From an uncultured Erysipelotrichaceae bacterium (GTDB lineage Bacteria; Bacillota_I; Bacilli_A; RF39; UBA660): a DNA stretch of 58,900 nucleotides. Both the position numbers and the translations under genes were made by a program. The stretch is taken from positions 1 to 58,900 of the forward strand of contig CACZGA010000003.1 in the NCBI GenBank assembly GCA_902780585.1, in the 5' to 3' direction. This document shows, in pieces, positions 2,935 to 49,752 of the stretch. The notes under the pieces were generated by a model. The model saw only the letters and a list, made by a program, of their open reading frames with translations. It was not told the DNA's origin and did not search any database. The stretch's first letter is position 1. Every line of letters starts with the position of its first letter.

Positions 2935-3501
2935 TTAATCAACCTCCTTCGCATATTTCCAATGATAACCACCACATTTATTTCTTTTTCCTTTTAAGCA
3001 ACTCCATATATGATGACTTATATTCAATTCTCTTTCAGCATCTGTAATACTATCAAAAGTTCTATCTAATTCAACACAATAAACAGGTGTAATAATTTTA
3101 TAATGTGCTTTACTTCTTACACCTTTTTTAAATTCAGTTGATGGAGAATTGTGTTGTCCTTTATGTGATATGCTTAATTTTTTTCTAGTTTCTTCACTTA
3201 TAGTACCATTACTACCACCTAAACCACCTTCTTGAACATTATATCCATTGCTAATTGTATCTAATTTAGTAATGTATTCTTTTTCAAGTTTTATTGCGCC
3301 TTCTTGTGTAAGATTTTCAAACAACACTTCTTTTTTAAAATTATCCCAACCATATTTAACAATTGCGCTACCTATCCTGGTTGGTTTTTTATACCCTTTT
3401 CCATTTTTCCATCTCTTATTTACATCTTGTTTTGTAATTCCTATATATTGCTTACCATTAATTAAATTTGTAAAGCAATACAACTTATAATTATCTATCA
3501 T
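2935..3501 (-). CDS. GIY-YIG homing endonuclease with NUMOD-type C-terminal domains
   Basis: LYCFTNLINGKQYIGIT, GYNVQEGG, ISEETRKKLS, CGGYHWKY. Confidence 0.85.
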   Translation of the reverse strand: MIDNYKLYCFTNLINGKQYIGITKQDVNKRWKNGKGYKKPTRIGSAIVKYGWDNFKKEVLFENLTQEGAIKLEKEYITKLDTISNGYNVQEGGLGGSNGTISEETRKKLSISHKGQHNSPSTEFKKGVRSKAHYKIITPVYCVELDRTFDSITDAERELNISHHIWSCLKGKRNKCGGYHWKYAKEVD

Positions 3502-4147
3502 AGGTTACCACCAAATGCTTATCTACTATTTCCATTTTTTCTATTGAAATACCATCTTCCAATGTTACATCTTTTGTTGTCCCATCTTGCCTAGTAATTG
3601 TGATAGATGTTATTTTACCTGTTTTCTCAGCATTTATATCTAATCTTTCAGCATTTTCAATAGCTTCGTCAATCTCTTCTATCTTTCCGTCAACCGTGTC
3701 AACTAGTTCATCTAGCTTATCATTAACTTCGTTCAAACCCTCTTGTAATGCTTGGGAATATAAATCATATTGTGTTGGTGTGATTATTTCTGGACTTAAT
3801 GCACCTTCTTCGTATGATCCTGTAGGTACTGTAAATTCAGCATAAGATGGACTGAATCTATTCGCTAAATCATCGTTTTCGTCAATGTTAAAGCCATAAA
3901 CACCCAACTTTACTATTTCATATTCATGCTTTAGCACTTCTGCCGGAATATCGCATTTGTTATTTATAATGTCTGTTTCATACATTTCGTCAGTTGATAA
4001 TATAGTGAATATCGCTCTTTTTACTTGAAAAGAATTTGTAAAGTCGTCGAAATTAAAACGACATTCTGTTATTTTATATTCGTTTTCATGTGGCGTATCC
4101 GAATTTTCTAATATTATTACCGAATCTTTTGTAACCTCTATATTCAC
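3491..4147 (-). CDS. Baseplate upper protein (BppU N-terminal-like)
   Basis: 218 aa; CDIPAEVL...LGVYG motif followed by a coiled coil; tail module context. Confidence 0.55.
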   Translation of the reverse strand: MNIEVTKDSVIILENSDTPHENEYKITECRFNFDDFTNSFQVKRAIFTILSTDEMYETDIINNKCDIPAEVLKHEYEIVKLGVYGFNIDENDDLANRFSPSYAEFTVPTGSYEEGALSPEIITPTQYDLYSQALQEGLNEVNDKLDELVDTVDGKIEEIDEAIENAERLDINAEKTGKITSITITRQDGTTKDVTLEDGISIEKMEIVDKHLVVTYDR

Positions 4148-45298: not shown

Positions 45299-45553
45299 AT
45301 GGGAAGAAGAAAAAACACTGAAATAATAGAATATATGGATGAAGCTTGTGATAAAGTATGGTATATGAGAAGTACACCATGTGATAATCCAGAAATTGAA
45401 AAAGGAAGATTAAAAGCTATAAAACGAGTAGAAAAAGAGTTTCCGGAAGTTAAAGAAGGATTTGATACTTGGGATTGTGGTTTTTGGAATGGTGTATTAG
45501 GAACACTTCGTTGGGTTCTTGGTGATGAAGAAAAAGATAATTTAGACACATAG
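45299..45553 (+). CDS. Hypothetical protein
   Basis: 84 aa; GFWNGVLGTLRWVLG. Confidence 0.6.
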   Translation: MGRRKNTEIIEYMDEACDKVWYMRSTPCDNPEIEKGRLKAIKRVEKEFPEVKEGFDTWDCGFWNGVLGTLRWVLGDEEKDNLDT

Positions 45554-45561
45554 GTGATTAT

Positions 45562-46434
45562 ATGAGTTTTGACGAATTGTTAGACAGAGTTTGGTATTAT
45601 GATATAGAAATTTTTGCACACGATTCACTAATAGTTTTCATATCACACAAAACACAAGAAAGAGTATATTTTCATAATTCTATACCAAACGATATACAAA
45701 ACTTTTTAGATATTAATGATCCAATACTTATAGGTTACAATTGTAATAATTATGACAAATGGATACTTAAATGTTGGTTAGCTGGATATACACCAGAAGA
45801 ATTAAAAGAAGTAAATGATTATATAATAAATGGTGGAAAAGGTTGGGAAATAGATTGTGGTCGAATCAATCTACCAATACATTGGGACTTGTTTAACGAA
45901 ATTAATCCTAGAAAATCTTTAAAAGAATGTGAGGGTCACATGAAATTAGATATAACAGAAACCACAGTTCCTTTTGATTTACCAACAAAGTGGACTAAAC
46001 AACAATTTGAAGAAGTTTTATATTATTGTACATGTGATGTTAAAGCTCTTATTCCACTTTTTGAAAAAATGAGAGATGGATATTTAGCTAAATATACTAT
46101 ATGTGAAATGGGTAATATTCCGTTTGATTATGGTTTAAGTTTAACAAATGCTAATTTAACTGCAACATTTCTACACGCTGAAAGAAAAGAACATGATGAT
46201 AAAAATGATTATCAATATCCAAGTAACTTTGAATTAGAAAAAATTTTACCAGAAGTTAAAGAATATTTTGATTCATTTATACGTGGAGAAATAGATATTG
46301 ATGATAAAAATTTACCCATTAATTTAGATGGTATGAGAGGTAATGTTGGGGCTGGTGGGATCCATTTAGCTTTAGATAATTATATTTTTGAAAGCGAAGA
46401 TTTTAATGTAGGTGATTATTATGAGCAAAATTAA
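45562..46434 (+). CDS. Family-B DNA polymerase, N-terminal 3'-5' exonuclease part
   Basis: Exo I YDIE, Exo II GYNCNNYD, Exo III YCTCDV; ends shortly after GGIH. Confidence 0.85.
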   Translation: MSFDELLDRVWYYDIEIFAHDSLIVFISHKTQERVYFHNSIPNDIQNFLDINDPILIGYNCNNYDKWILKCWLAGYTPEELKEVNDYIINGGKGWEIDCGRINLPIHWDLFNEINPRKSLKECEGHMKLDITETTVPFDLPTKWTKQQFEEVLYYCTCDVKALIPLFEKMRDGYLAKYTICEMGNIPFDYGLSLTNANLTATFLHAERKEHDDKNDYQYPSNFELEKILPEVKEYFDSFIRGEIDIDDKNLPINLDGMRGNVGAGGIHLALDNYIFESEDFNVGDYYEQN

Positions 46435-47077
46435 AGATTTAACAGGTAAAAAATTTGGAATGGTTACTGTTATTAAGTTAGATAGAATAGAAAATAGAAG
46501 AACATATTGGATATGTAAATGTGATTGTGGCAACATTTTTACTCGTAGGTCTGATATAATCCAAAATAAAGAGGTTAAAAGTTGTGGTTGTTATCAAAAA
46601 GAAAATAATAAAATTATAGGAACTTTACATGGAGATGGTTCTAAAAAATCTAAATATCATCGGTTATATCAATGTTATCAAAGTATGAAACAAAGATGTT
46701 ATAACCCTAATTGTATTCAATTTAAAGATTGGGGTGGACGTGGTATAAAAGTGTGTGATGAGTGGAAAAATGATTATTTAAAATTTAAAAAATGGGCTTT
46801 ATCACATGGTTATCATGATGAATTGACACTTGACAGAATAAAGGTTAATAGAAATTACGAACCTAATAATTGTAGATGGATAACTAAAATTGAACAAAAT
46901 AGAAATACTAGAAAATGTAAACATTTTCTTATAAATAATAAAGATTATACAATACCTTTGTTATCTAAAAAATTAGGTATAAGTGATGATACAATACATT
47001 ATTGGTTAAAAAAAGGATGTGATATAAATTATATATTAAAACGTTTTAAAAGTAATAAGGAGGTGGTTAGGGAGTGA
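46412..47077 (+). CDS. HNH-type homing endonuclease (AP2/HNH-like)
   Basis: DLTGKKFG, WICKCDCG, SCGC, GGRGIKVCDEW, TLDRI...YEPNNCRW; probable start at 46421. Confidence 0.85.
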   Translation: MIIMSKIKDLTGKKFGMVTVIKLDRIENRRTYWICKCDCGNIFTRRSDIIQNKEVKSCGCYQKENNKIIGTLHGDGSKKSKYHRLYQCYQSMKQRCYNPNCIQFKDWGGRGIKVCDEWKNDYLKFKKWALSHGYHDELTLDRIKVNRNYEPNNCRWITKIEQNRNTRKCKHFLINNKDYTIPLLSKKLGISDDTIHYWLKKGCDINYILKRFKSNKEVVRE

Positions 47078-49073
47078 AAAGGCTATTATTAAATTATGAT
47101 GTAGCCTCACTTCGGTGAGATCTATATCCAAGTTTAATTTGTGAATATGGCTATTCTAGTAGAAATCAACCTGATGCTAATTTATATAAAGAGTTGAGAG
47201 AAACTAGAATAAAAGCCAAACATAGTGGTGATAAAAAAACAGCTAATGCTTTAAAACTCCCTCTCTGAATACTTATTATGGAGCTTTAGGTGCTAGATGG
47301 AACAATCTTTTTGATTTAAAACAATGTAGATCAATTTGTATTTCAGGTCAGTGTGCTTTGCTTATTTTAATATATGATTTACGAAAGATACCAACTTTAA
47401 AATGTATTAGCTCTAACACCGATGCTTGTCAATTCGAAGTCGATGATACTTATATGAATGACGTTCAAGAAGTAATTAATAATTGGCAAAAAAGATATAG
47501 ACTTGAATTAGAACGTGATGATGTTTTAAAAATAGTTATGAAAGACATCAATAATTATTGTGAAATACTTCAAACAAATAAAGGAAAACAAGTAAATTTT
47601 AAAGGTGGTTGTTTTGCGGGTTGTCCTGATATAAAAATACATGAAAATGGTAAATTAGAAACAATATATAAAGATAGTTATAAAGCAAATTCTATGGTAA
47701 TTGTAGCAGAAGCTATTTTAAAATATTTATTGTTTAACATACCTATTGAGAAAACTATCAATAATTGTAATGATATCTTCAAATTTCAACAGATATCCCA
47801 CCTAGGCTCTACCTACGAAAAGTGTGTTCAAGAGTCAGAAAATGGTGATATAGAACTTCAAAGGAACAATCGTATATACGCTGGTCTTAAACCAAGTGGT
47901 GTAATAATAAAAGTAAAACCGAATGGTAGACGTGATTCACTTGCGAATTGTCCTCCAAACCCGATAGTCGACAATGGTAATAAATGCACTATTGAAGATA
48001 TAAACAAGGAATGGTATATTGAGTTTGCACAGGAAAAAGCAAACGATTTCTTAGGTATACCTAGGCTTGATAGTTTGAAAAAAGAAGAACTTTTAGAAAG
48101 AGCTAAAGGTTTGGGCTTAGAAATAGATAAAAAAACAAAAAAAGATGATATAATAAAGATGATAAAAAATAAAGAAAGAAATGAGGTAAAAAATATGGCT
48201 ACAAAGCAAGATATTGAAAAAGAGCTGGAAGAAACAAAAGAAAAATTAAATAAAGCCGTTACACAAAACGAGCAATTAATGAATAAGATTAAAGAAAGTG
48301 AGAATGTAAAAGAAATGAAGTTTGCTGATGAAAGATTAAATGATAATATTATGTTACAAAGTTCTTTATACAAGAAAATAAACGAACTAAGAAAATATAT
48401 TAGGAGTGTCGATTTTGTATATGATGAAGAATTGCCTAGTAATTTGGGTGGTGGAGAATATTATAGTATAGGACAATTATACGATGCTTTACAAAAAGGT
48501 TGTTTAGAAGTTGGATTAGATTTTAGTCACGATGTTGTCGAAGTTATTAGCTTTGATAAAGAACTTGTAAAACCAAGTGGTAAATTACCAATCCATGTTG
48601 CAACCGTTAAAACAAAATCGACATTAACTGATATAAACACCGGGATTAGTAAAGATTATATTACAATAGCACAAGGTAGTGATACAATTGATAAAGCTAT
48701 TAGCGGTGCAAGTACGCTAGCGTTTAGACAATGGTTTACAAAGAATTTCTCTCCTAAAAATGCTAATGATGATGACAATGTTGATGAAACACCAAAGAGT
48801 GAAGAACCTAAAGTTCCAGTATACATTCCTGAAAGCAAAAAAGAAGAAATAAAAGAAGAAGTTGTAAAACAAGTACAACAAGAAGATAGTGATGATGAAG
48901 ATATTAAAGTAATCTGTCAGAACATAATGGCAATCAGAGAAAAGACAGGAAATGAAGAATACGGAAAAACTACAATGCAAGCTTTAATGAGTGGTATTTT
49001 AAGCAGTGCTGATATTTTAGAAATTGACTTAAAGATTAAACAGAAAATGGAGAGTGTTGGATTGAATGTATGA
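47074..49073 (+). CDS. Family-B DNA polymerase catalytic part (needs two recoding events), fused in frame to an ERF-like domain
   Basis: GTG start with AAGGAGGTG RBS; motif A DVASL[R*DL]YPS; motif B KLPL[+2]NTYYG; motif C SNTDA. Confidence 0.75.
48195..49073 (+). CDS. ERF-family single-strand annealing protein (internal in-frame start)
   Basis: GAGGT RBS before ATG 48195; GSDTIDKAISGASTLAFR motif; lies near the YqaJ exonuclease gene. Confidence 0.65.
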   Translation: MATKQDIEKELEETKEKLNKAVTQNEQLMNKIKESENVKEMKFADERLNDNIMLQSSLYKKINELRKYIRSVDFVYDEELPSNLGGGEYYSIGQLYDALQKGCLEVGLDFSHDVVEVISFDKELVKPSGKLPIHVATVKTKSTLTDINTGISKDYITIAQGSDTIDKAISGASTLAFRQWFTKNFSPKNANDDDNVDETPKSEEPKVPVYIPESKKEEIKEEVVKQVQQEDSDDEDIKVICQNIMAIREKTGNEEYGKTTMQALMSGILSSADILEIDLKIKQKMESVGLNV

Positions 49074-49752
49074 AGATGTTGAAATTAACTCCAAAAGATG
49101 GTTTGATTTAAAAGACTTGAAAAACGAGGAATGGAAAGACATCAAGGATTTTGAAAATTTGTACCAGGTTAGTAATTATGCGAGAATAAAGAGCTTATAT
49201 AAACCATCTATTAAAAACCAATATATGTATGATAGAATCATGAAAATAAAACCTAATAAATTAGGATATTCGACTGTTCATTTTATTCATAACGGTAAGG
49301 AATATAGAAAATTATTACATATATTGGTTGCTGAAACATTTATACCTAATCCAAATAATCTTCCACAAGTATTGCACAAAAAAGCAACTTTAGATGGTGG
49401 GACTGATAGAGTTGACAATTTATATTGGGGTACACAGAAAGACAACATGCGTGATAGAAAAAATGAAGGTAAATTTGTTGTAAGCGAAGAAACTAGAAGT
49501 AAAATAAGTGTTTCGCAAAAAATAAAAATAAATCAATATGATTTAAACGGGAACTATATCAAAACATGGGATAGTGCATCTGATGTAAAAAAGGAATTAA
49601 ATATTGATGACAGCACGATACGAAAATGTTGTAGAGGTGTTAAAAAATCTTGTGGTGGTTTCCAATGGAGAAAATTTAACAATAACACAGAAAACATTAA
49701 AAAATATAGTATATTGAAAAGAAAGGAAATTAAAAATGGAATGGAAATATAG
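49066..49752 (+). CDS. NUMOD4-HNH-NUMOD1 homing endonuclease
   Basis: EEWKDI...YQVSN, HILVAETFIPNP, NLYWGTQKDN, CGGFQWR. Confidence 0.85.
   Translation: MYEDVEINSKRWFDLKDLKNEEWKDIKDFENLYQVSNYARIKSLYKPSIKNQYMYDRIMKIKPNKLGYSTVHFIHNGKEYRKLLHILVAETFIPNPNNLPQVLHKKATLDGGTDRVDNLYWGTQKDNMRDRKNEGKFVVSEETRSKISVSQKIKINQYDLNGNYIKTWDSASDVKKELNIDDSTIRKCCRGVKKSCGGFQWRKFNNNTENIKKYSILKRKEIKNGMEI

Follow-up and report, generated by a model that had tools for sequence, protein, structure and literature searches.

A conserved two-nucleotide break in motif B of a split phage DNA polymerase gene and its proposed correction by a short ribosomal hop

Natural ribosome hopping long rested on one bench-proven bacterial case, gene 60 of phage T4, together with yeast mitochondria. 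In the T4 gene 39/mobA/gene 60 locus, the gene is split by an HNH endonuclease, behind which comes a bypass cassette with a 50-nucleotide (nt) gap; its elements are a UUCG take-off hairpin, matched GGA codons, and a stop or hungry codon (bioRxiv 10.1101/2022.08.31.505936). The main text of that preprint describes the insert as protecting the DNA from MobA, reports lineages that lost the endonuclease and kept the bypass, places MobA elements exclusively in Topo2L, presents the cassette as 'unique', and puts the shortest gap at 20 nt; the word polymerase is absent from this main text. Here we analyze a 2-nt break within catalytic motif B of a split phage gene that the modelled structure of an unsplit relative assigns to the family-B DNA polymerases. 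The gene lies on contig CACZGA010000003.1, the whole of which (58,900 bp) is called the window below and which is part of a 1.75-Mb bin (GCA_902780585.1). By analogy, the T4 gene 60/mobA bypass comes nearest among known systems; the window site is not a member of the MobA element, as its host gene is different.

Other described systems share single traits with this site. Stop-hops of 9 nt with matched codons flanking the stop are known from synthetic constructs, and a 2016 review knew of no natural in-frame stop-hop (PMC5009743). Ribosomes stalled at UGA are described as hopping to codons that match the anticodon in the peptidyl (P) site (PMC6815119). The synthetic stop-hops and the +2, +5, and +6 shifts in E. 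coli resemble what we propose here, in that a peptidyl-tRNA leaves a codon beside a stop and re-pairs a few bases on with no elaborate signal; they are artificial and inefficient, whereas the hop at motif B would be natural, conserved, and obligatory for an essential enzyme. The +1 shift of prfB (release factor 2) at CUU UGA C likewise has a Leu CUN codon in the P site, a poorly recognized UGA in the aminoacyl (A) site, and forward re-pairing. That shift leads onto UUU, has an upstream Shine-Dalgarno sequence, and is autoregulatory (PMC6815119), whereas the event proposed here would lead +2 onto a synonymous Leu codon with no Shine-Dalgarno sequence and no evident regulatory logic. The 'byps' of Magnusiomyces capitatus mitochondria are also short inserts in conserved genes that are corrected at translation, some of them between imperfect codon pairs, with an unused or rare A-site codon and relaxed wobble reading invoked; they number 81 across most genes of one yeast mitochondrial genome (PMC5009743), whereas the present case would concern bacterial translation, with the inserts confined to two motifs of a single gene that has homing endonucleases next to it. 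The byps blocks are longer, tens of nucleotides, and the CUU-AGG-C shift of Ty1 and the first hopping studies of 1987-89 offer further parallels. The literature searched, which did not extend to subscription journals and supplements, yielded no account of recoding for this polymerase family.

The two-nucleotide break at motif B

The break and the coding segments on its two sides are as follows.

47263..47270, + strand: motif B break as read from the sequence, with take-off codon CTC (47263-65), stop TGA (47266-68), overlapping landing codon CTG (47265-67), and resumption at AAT (47268-70)
47125..47265, + strand: middle coding segment between the two proposed recoding sites (YPSLICEY...ANALKLPL), from its translation, corresponding by difference to about positions 348-408 of the phrog_1252 profile
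47268..49073, + strand: C-terminal polymerase frame (motif B NTYYG, motif C NTD, thumb), matching phrog_1252 at profile positions 408-652 (expectation value (E) 1e-51), with a 339-amino-acid (aa) extension

The codons GCT (47248-50), TTA (47251-53), AAA (47254-56), CTC (47257-59), and CCT (47260-62) lead up to the take-off codon, and motif B resumes as AAT ACT TAT TAT GGA two bases beyond the zero frame (KLPL / TG / NTYYG). A sequence-only reading of this DNA had pointed to TTA AAA CTC CCT CTC TGA with a continuation at AAT 47268, and its coordinates are exact. The downstream frame begins at AAT 47268-70 (NTYYGALGAR...) and ends at a stop at 49071-49073, and the 190 bases between the endonuclease open reading frame (ORF) that splits the gene and this frame code for the missing piece of the polymerase.

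We compared the window over 45500-48100 with Logan contigs, which are assembled contigs and not raw reads, from four runs belonging to four studies. The probable source run (X1) yielded a second assembly in which a 3,528-nt contig covers 45500-48100 with 0 differences and 0 gaps. A contig of run X2 covers 46852-47913 with 5 differences and 0 gaps, two contigs of X4 cover 47255-47538 with 0 and 41 differences (41 of 284) and 0 gaps, and contigs of X6 cover 47091-47274 (0 and 14 of 184 differences) and 47245-47410 (1 difference) without gaps. No inserted or deleted letter relative to the window was found in the contigs of the four runs, and hence none of the CT length variation for which the sequence-only reading had proposed a read pile-up. 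Homologue alignment, the second check named there, finds the interruption shared by relatives: CTC TGA AT follows K-L-P in 5 further distinct contigs with 89% (L003), 87% (L047), 68% (L004), 66% (L049), and 60% (L065) protein identity. Since the contigs of four runs agree and five other contigs carry an identical break, it is not an assembly error.

The octamer CTCTGAAT is invariant in all 6 distinct carriers, the window included, while third codon positions next to it vary, with synonymous changes TTA/TTG/CTA, CTC/CTT, CCT/CCA, ACT/ACA, and TAT/TAC in the flanks. It is not a rare word as such (3 occurrences in the window vs 2.2 expected); its placement, at the K-x3-N junction, and its conservation, not its frequency, exceed chance. 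The zero frame reads KLPL in 6 of 6 carriers and fits the K-L-x-[LI]-N of uninterrupted relatives. A shift before the last Leu would destroy conserved residues and add one, so the shift must take place after the last Leu.

Both sides of the break are under selection. Between the window and the five other carriers, the ratio of nonsynonymous to synonymous substitution rates (dN/dS, Nei-Gojobori) is 0.077, 0.034, 0.237, 0.185, and 0.420 in the middle segment (0.03-0.42 overall) and 0.083, 0.090, 0.146, and 0.227 over the 262 C-terminal codons (0.08-0.23), where the fifth pair (L049) is saturated at synonymous sites; the synonymous divergence (dS) runs from 0.17 to >1.6. Purifying selection in both frames over such long divergence, with the break unmoved, excludes decay, as the sequence-only reading had supposed in setting random decay aside. 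The break is therefore real, conserved, and selected on both sides, and the zero frame is read through the last Leu. It is accordingly hard to credit that the locus is a decaying pseudogene or an assembly artefact, with another polymerase doing the work or the pieces acting as internally started separate subunits. The gene is already split in two ORFs by an endonuclease, and a distant homologue of the C-terminal piece lies on bin contig C1 (32079-32714; 24.7% identity over 231 residues); on the other side, independent assemblies agree on the break, purifying selection acts on either side of it, and the same break persists at only 60% protein identity. Moreover, the first possible start in the downstream frame is TTG 47358, which lies beyond motif B, and no second polymerase of the same phrog_1252-type family was found on the contig.

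The assignment to family B comes from structure prediction. A Pfam search of the polymerase pieces gave no match and a PDB sequence search nothing relevant; the AlphaFold2 model of an unsplit relative (L011; predicted local distance difference test (pLDDT) 90.1, predicted template modelling score (pTM) 0.85) matched family-B DNA polymerases exclusively among the listed top 50 PDB chains (best E 5.9e-15). With motifs A (DxxSLYP), B (KxxxNxxYG), and C present, the gene is, on the strength of this model, a family-B DNA polymerase. In 18 aligned unsplit relatives, D292, Y297, and P298 of motif A and K352, L353, N356, and G360 of motif B are invariant, and judging by this sequence record the polymerase gene and its motif B are essential. 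Motif C reads N-T-D (N405-T406-D407) in 18 of 18 aligned sequences (SSNTDAC at 47420-47430 in the window), vs the usual D-T-D of family B.

Proposed translational recoding and competing explanations

We consider it highly probable from the sequence comparisons that recoding at the level of translation restores a full-length polymerase. As to how, the probable route is a programmed +2 shift at the UGA, in which peptidyl-tRNA-Leu would leave the rare CUC, re-pair with the CUG that overlaps it, and so give KLPLNTYYG. The ribosome would decode K-L-P-L and come to hold peptidyl-tRNA-Leu in the P site on CUC (47263-65) with UGA (47266-68) in the A site. Slow termination and weak pairing of CUC with a tRNA-Leu(UAG)-type anticodon would let the tRNA release, the mRNA would move by two bases, and the tRNA would re-pair on CUG (47265-67). 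AAU would then enter the A site and the chain would go on as KLPLNTYYGALGAR..., with the exact K-x3-N-x2-Y-G of motif B, so that the predicted junction peptide of the +2 hop is LPLNTYYGALGAR. We infer both that the ribosome is the repair agent and that the junction is +2 rather than -1.

The spacing of motif B fits this route. Uninterrupted junctions read K-L-x-[L/I/N]-N, with three residues from K to N, and K-x3-N is kept in all 52 examined (44 uninterrupted at motif B and 8 with an insert four codons later), which agrees with the proposal in the sequence-only reading that re-pairing from CTC (47263) to CTG (47265) restores KxxxNxxYG. Its impression that C-rich CUN codons are unusual here is borne out by the 15,206 codons of the long ORFs of the window, where 6 of the 1,189 Leu codons are CTC (0.5%) and 16 are CTG (1.3%), with TTA and TTG together at 75%; two CTC codons fall within the 47-codon stretch preceding the break. 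A stop directly after a CUN codon and then AAU forces CUC-UGA-AU, and with it the landing codon CUG, so the +2 model accounts for both the fixed CTC and the fixed CTG.

A -1 frameshift, which is arithmetically the same frame change as +2, would place the junction elsewhere. Either Pro-tRNA would slip from CCU (47260-62) to CCC (47259-61), giving KLPSLNTYYG, or a tandem slip on the heptamer T TTA AAA at 47250-56 would give KTPSLNTYYG; both add one residue, as the sequence-only reading had foreseen for the heptamer. We regard this explanation as unlikely. Three of the 6 carriers, L047 (TTG), L004 (C CTA), and L049 (C TTA), lack the heptamer, which is rejected on that ground. C CCN, by comparison, is present in 6 of 6, and tRNA-Pro(UGG), the sole Pro tRNA of the bin, could re-pair on CCC; L095 (CTC CCC A AAC) resembles a Pro-tRNA slip that adds a Pro, and -1 shifts are far commoner in nature than +2 shifts (PMC5009743). 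However, the product of a -1 shift would have K-x4-N where every uninterrupted junction has K-x3-N, and the inserted residue would differ among carriers (Ser, or Thr in L065, KLPTLN). The -1 route has no downstream structure and no upstream Shine-Dalgarno sequence, leaves the rare CTC and CTG fixed in all carriers unexplained, and cannot account for the alleles of 5, 7, 9, 10, 12, and 16 nt described below.

The correction might instead lie in nucleic acid, either through minority genomes or a phase-variable CT repeat, or through RNA polymerase slippage or editing that removes two bases. The site does fall within a (CT)3 run (CTCTCT, 47261-66), and dinucleotide repeats can change length at replication. 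However, (CT)3 is short for phase variation, no length variant is present in the contigs of four runs, diverged strains included, and the interrupted form is the one retained across dS >1. Transcriptional slippage is known for long homopolymer runs but not for CT repeats, and slippage could not remove the other alleles (TAACT, TGATA, CGGTGAGAT, and more), which are not repeats. Altogether, we hold a correction of this kind to be improbable. A reading of TGA as an amino acid (codes 4 or 25) was also rejected. It is at odds with the 92 window ORFs of at least 100 aa, which end in TAA (55), TGA (19), or TAG (18), and with a bin whose sole tRNA-Trp has the anticodon CCA; moreover, read-through of TGA at 47266 would meet another stop five codons later.

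The leucine tRNAs of the bin have the anticodons CAA, UAA, and UAG only, which leaves tRNA-Leu(UAG) as the sole CUN reader. CTC and CTG both encode Leu and are thus matched codons through this tRNA, though the bin may not be the host. If the bin is the host, one tRNA would read all CUN codons, perhaps pairing weakly with CUC and better with CUG. The relatives of the polymerase fall in bins labelled Gastranaerophilales, Bacilli, and 'bacterium', and no phage-encoded tRNA was found in the window. Five tRNA genes with a CUA anticodon (amber suppressors, labelled Pyl by ARAGORN) lie on bin contigs C4, C20, C53, C69, and C144.

Several points weigh against a programmed +2 hop. In E. coli constructs, hopping is inefficient when no stimulator is present, and this gene would need two recoding events in succession. 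No RNA structure was detected at motif B, where the local fold has a z-score of +0.29 and the consensus fold of the six carriers reaches -0.76 kcal/mol, with 2 of 8 predicted pairs that keep pairing through changes on both sides; nor was any Shine-Dalgarno-like run found in the 20 nt upstream of the break. The zero-frame TGA follows automatically from CTG-AAT, so its conservation is no independent evidence. The Logan contigs hide rare variants, which makes a minority in-frame genome possible, and the bin mixes phage contigs, so that its tRNA set may not be that of the host. Finally, the landing codon CTG shares base 47265 with the take-off codon CTC, whereas in bypassing the two do not overlap; the event would therefore formally be a +2 frameshift and not bypassing by the definition given in PMC5009743.

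An allele series at motifs A and B

Scans with the 262-residue C-terminal and the 290-residue N-terminal pieces gave 37 and 6 viral-contig, 48 metagenome-contig, and 3 genome-contig loci. Duplicates, matching fully over the 300 nt that precede and the 200 nt that follow the junction, were dropped, as were L036 and L092, which are cut by contig ends; 58 distinct sequences were left, or 59 with the window. Of the 59, we observe 19 with a break at motif A or B; they fall into 12 allele classes with inserts of 2, 3, 4, 5, 7, 9, 10, 12, or 16 nt at SL^YP, KLPL^N, or NAYT^G. The classes are given below as take-off codon / inserted bases / next codon.

Motif B, CTC/TG/AAT: 6 sequences, including the window
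Motif B, CTC/CCCA/AAC: L095
Motif B, ACT/TGATA/GGA: L008
Motif B, ACG/TAATA/GGA: L010
Motif B, ACT or ACG/TAACT/GGN: L021, L023, L068, L081, L094
Motif B, ACT/TGAAACG/GGT: L061
Motif A, CTT/CGG TGA GNN CTA/TAT: window, L003, L047
Motif A, CTG/CGGTGACTT/TAT: L004, L005
Motif A, CTC/CGGTGGAAAATGACTA/TAT: L049
Motif A, CTC/CGGATCCCTT/TAT: L013
Motif A, CTT/CGGTA/TAT: L096
Motif A, TAT/TAA/CCA: L072

In L008, L010, L013, L021, L023, L049, L061, L068, L072, L081, L094, L095, and L096, the inserts fall roughly 0-300 nt upstream of where the match begins. The codon right after take-off is a stop in 6 of the 12 classes, CGG in 5, and CCC in 1; in the long ORFs of the window, CGG accounts for 7 of 621 Arg codons (1.1%) and CCC for 19 of 418 Pro codons. 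In 7 of 12 classes the take-off and landing codons are synonymous, as in ACT TA ACT GGA, CTC CGGATCC CTT TAT, and ACT TGAA ACG GGT. Several of the gaps change frame (2, 4, 5, 7, 10, and 16 nt), so stop read-through is not a general answer. These regularities support the suggestion in the sequence-only reading that the lesions at motifs A and B share a mechanism. We slightly favor the view that micro-hops of 2-16 nt in polymerase motifs A and B form a natural, obligatory class in gut and rumen siphophages, in which inserts recur by wrecking homing-endonuclease targets and survive where the P-site tRNA can re-pair at a stop or starved codon. CUC-UGA-A would be the smallest member of this class, a +2 hop without RNA structure. 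The codon pattern has exceptions, which count against the hop: the landing codon is only near-cognate in 3 classes (ATA for Thr in two, TAA for Tyr), and 2 classes have no matching landing codon (L095, CTC/CCCA/AAC, and L096, CTT/CGGTA/TAT). These two may alternatively reflect slips that add one residue apiece, +1 on CCC-A and +2 on UAUAU.

The tree points to independent origins of the interruptions. L005, the sister of L004 (support 100/99), reads CCA TTA AAT unbroken at motif B, and L065 falls in a separate, well-supported clade alongside sequences carrying a 5-nt insert or no insert at all. As L065 lies outside the clade of the window, the 2-nt form arose, or was transferred, at least twice; the 5-nt alleles require at least 3 changes. 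No large insertion such as a group I intron or an intein was found at motif A or B in the 59 distinct sequences, and large inserts occur exclusively between the exonuclease (exo) and polymerase (pol) ORFs.

The other interruption in the window lies at motif A, about 150 nt upstream of the motif B break.

47098..47128, + strand: motif A cassette CTT CGG TGA GAT CTA within a UUCG-loop hairpin, DVASL[R*D]LYPS

This lesion, which the sequence-only reading had also marked, is real: take-off CTT (47110-12) is followed by the rare CGG (47113-15), TGA (47116-18), the gap codon GAT (47119-21), the landing codon CTA (47122-24), and TAT. The gap is in-frame and begins 13 codons after the restart codon, from which motif A lies 33 nt and motif B 186 nt away, and here the landing codon is clear of the take-off codon. 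The motif A fold of the window has -12.9 kcal/mol and a z-score of -3.34; the hairpins of the window, L003, and L047 are all UUCG-closed (-12.9 to -13.0 kcal/mol, z -3.3 to -3.5), and the hairpin places the take-off and landing codons close together. No significant fold was found at motif A of L004, L013, or L049. The gap codon varies (GAT/GGA/GAA) across the window, L003, and L047, with 0-1 residue differences in the remaining 49-codon segment, and a 47121 T>A variant (GAA) is present in runs X4 and X6; a variable gap codon within a near-constant segment is as expected for untranslated bases. In the proposed order of events the first hop would take place here, from CUU past CGG UGA GAU to CUA within the UUCG hairpin, with ...DVASLYPSLICEYGYSSR as the predicted junction peptide. 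The nascent chain of 13 residues is too short for a tunnel signal of the gene 60 type.

Homing endonucleases and the setting of the split gene

Interruption coincides with splitting of the gene. The polymerase is unsplit in 20 of the 59 sequences, and all 20 are uninterrupted; all 19 interrupted ones are split. An HNH gene of the phrog_374 or phrog_59 type lies between the halves in 17 split genes (the window and, in the equivalent slot, 16 other distinct relatives). Interruptions are found in 15 of these 17 vs 4 of the 42 others (Fisher p = 1.1e-8, uncorrected for relatedness and indicative only). We give about even chances to the idea, drawn by analogy, that the 2-16-nt inserts are 'saviour indels' that destroy the DNA targets of homing endonucleases and are tolerated through ribosome hops. 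On the negative side, the association between endonuclease and insert is confounded by shared ancestry, L027 and L070 bear an endonuclease and are uninterrupted, and L013 and L065 are interrupted without an endonuclease ORF. The remaining two of the four, L010 and L068, are interrupted sequences cut by contig ends.

In L012, L013, L015, L020, and others, the polymerase occupies two ORFs (the first ends at a stop and the second restarts immediately upstream of motif A) without an intervening gene, which looks like the footprint of a lost endonuclease; L013 retains its motif A gap despite having no gene between the halves. Cargo other than nucleases is also found at the exo/pol split, namely a PAPS-reductase-like gene in L006 and DNA methyltransferase genes in L024 and L061.

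The likeness to T4 gene 60 extends over several features. In both, an HNH endonuclease splits an essential replication gene, and the second ORF has an insert, here putatively untranslated, not far behind its restart; the landing codon matches the take-off codon, which is followed by a stop or 'hungry' codon; and the UUCG-closed take-off hairpin at motif A of the window is a miniature in form of the T4 one. The stages of decay are also alike, with the endonuclease lost and the gap kept (L013) or the gene split without a gap (L012 and others). The differences are that the host gene here is a predicted family-B DNA polymerase and not a topoisomerase, that the gaps measure 2-16 nt vs 50 nt in T4 itself and 20 nt in the clade where they are shortest, that two sites lie in one gene and both in catalytic motifs, and that motif B has neither hairpin nor Shine-Dalgarno sequence and has an overlapping landing codon.

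Upstream of the two proposed recoding sites, the gene is laid out as follows.

45562..46434, + strand: N-terminal (exonuclease) ORF of the split family-B DNA polymerase, 290 aa, matching phrog_1252 'DNA polymerase' (E 8.9e-49, profile 53-348 of 663)
46412..47077, + strand: HNH homing endonuclease between the polymerase ORFs, matching phrog_374 HNH endonuclease (E 2.7e-66)
47057..47076, + strand: Shine-Dalgarno sequence AAGGAGGTG (47057-65) and GTG start (47074-76) of the C-terminal polymerase ORF, read from the sequence

The exonuclease ORF aligns to the N-terminal third of unsplit relatives of 895-965 aa; a single unsplit-relative ORF has only 632 aa and ends at the limit of the fetched stretch. 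GTG 47074-76, which overlaps the stop of the endonuclease, is the probable start codon, and relatives use ATG or GTG at the equivalent place. The frame that follows AAGGAGGTG and GTG 47074 translates as KRLLLNYDVASLR, a stop, DLYPSLICEYGYSSRNQPDANLYKELRETRIKAKHSGDKKTANALKLPL, and a second stop. At the far end of the gene, the 339-residue C-terminal extension (48054-49070) has no PHROG match and is native, because the unsplit relatives reach 895-965 aa.

The window encodes a terminase, portal, major head protein, tape measure, amidase endolysin, primase, helicase, methyltransferases, and three homing endonucleases. This set of structural and replication genes marks it as all or most of a tailed phage genome, that of a siphophage of roughly 59 kb. 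Besides the endonuclease within the polymerase, a NUMOD4/NUMOD1 HNH gene (phrog_59, 49066-49752) overlaps the polymerase stop, and a GIY-YIG type homing endonuclease (phrog_314, 2938-3504, - strand) lies among the tail genes. At the DNA level, the endonuclease alone matched named phages; the polymerase is about 30% identical to polymerases of Enterococcus, Weissella, and Staphylococcus phages.

What motif B adds to the known cases of hopping is a 2-nt site without a visible RNA signal that is deeply conserved and stands within a 12-allele series of varied lengths. The series offers natural cases for what a hop minimally needs in P-site codon, A-site codon, and distance. For the contest between phages and homing endonucleases, it suggests how the DNA of an otherwise untouchable catalytic motif could be mutated while the protein stays unchanged. 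Gene callers will report such polymerases as broken. If the proposed reading is true, ordinary bacterial ribosomes hop short gaps with enough efficiency for two hops in a row to keep an essential enzyme supplied, and such sites are systematically mis-annotated as pseudogenes.

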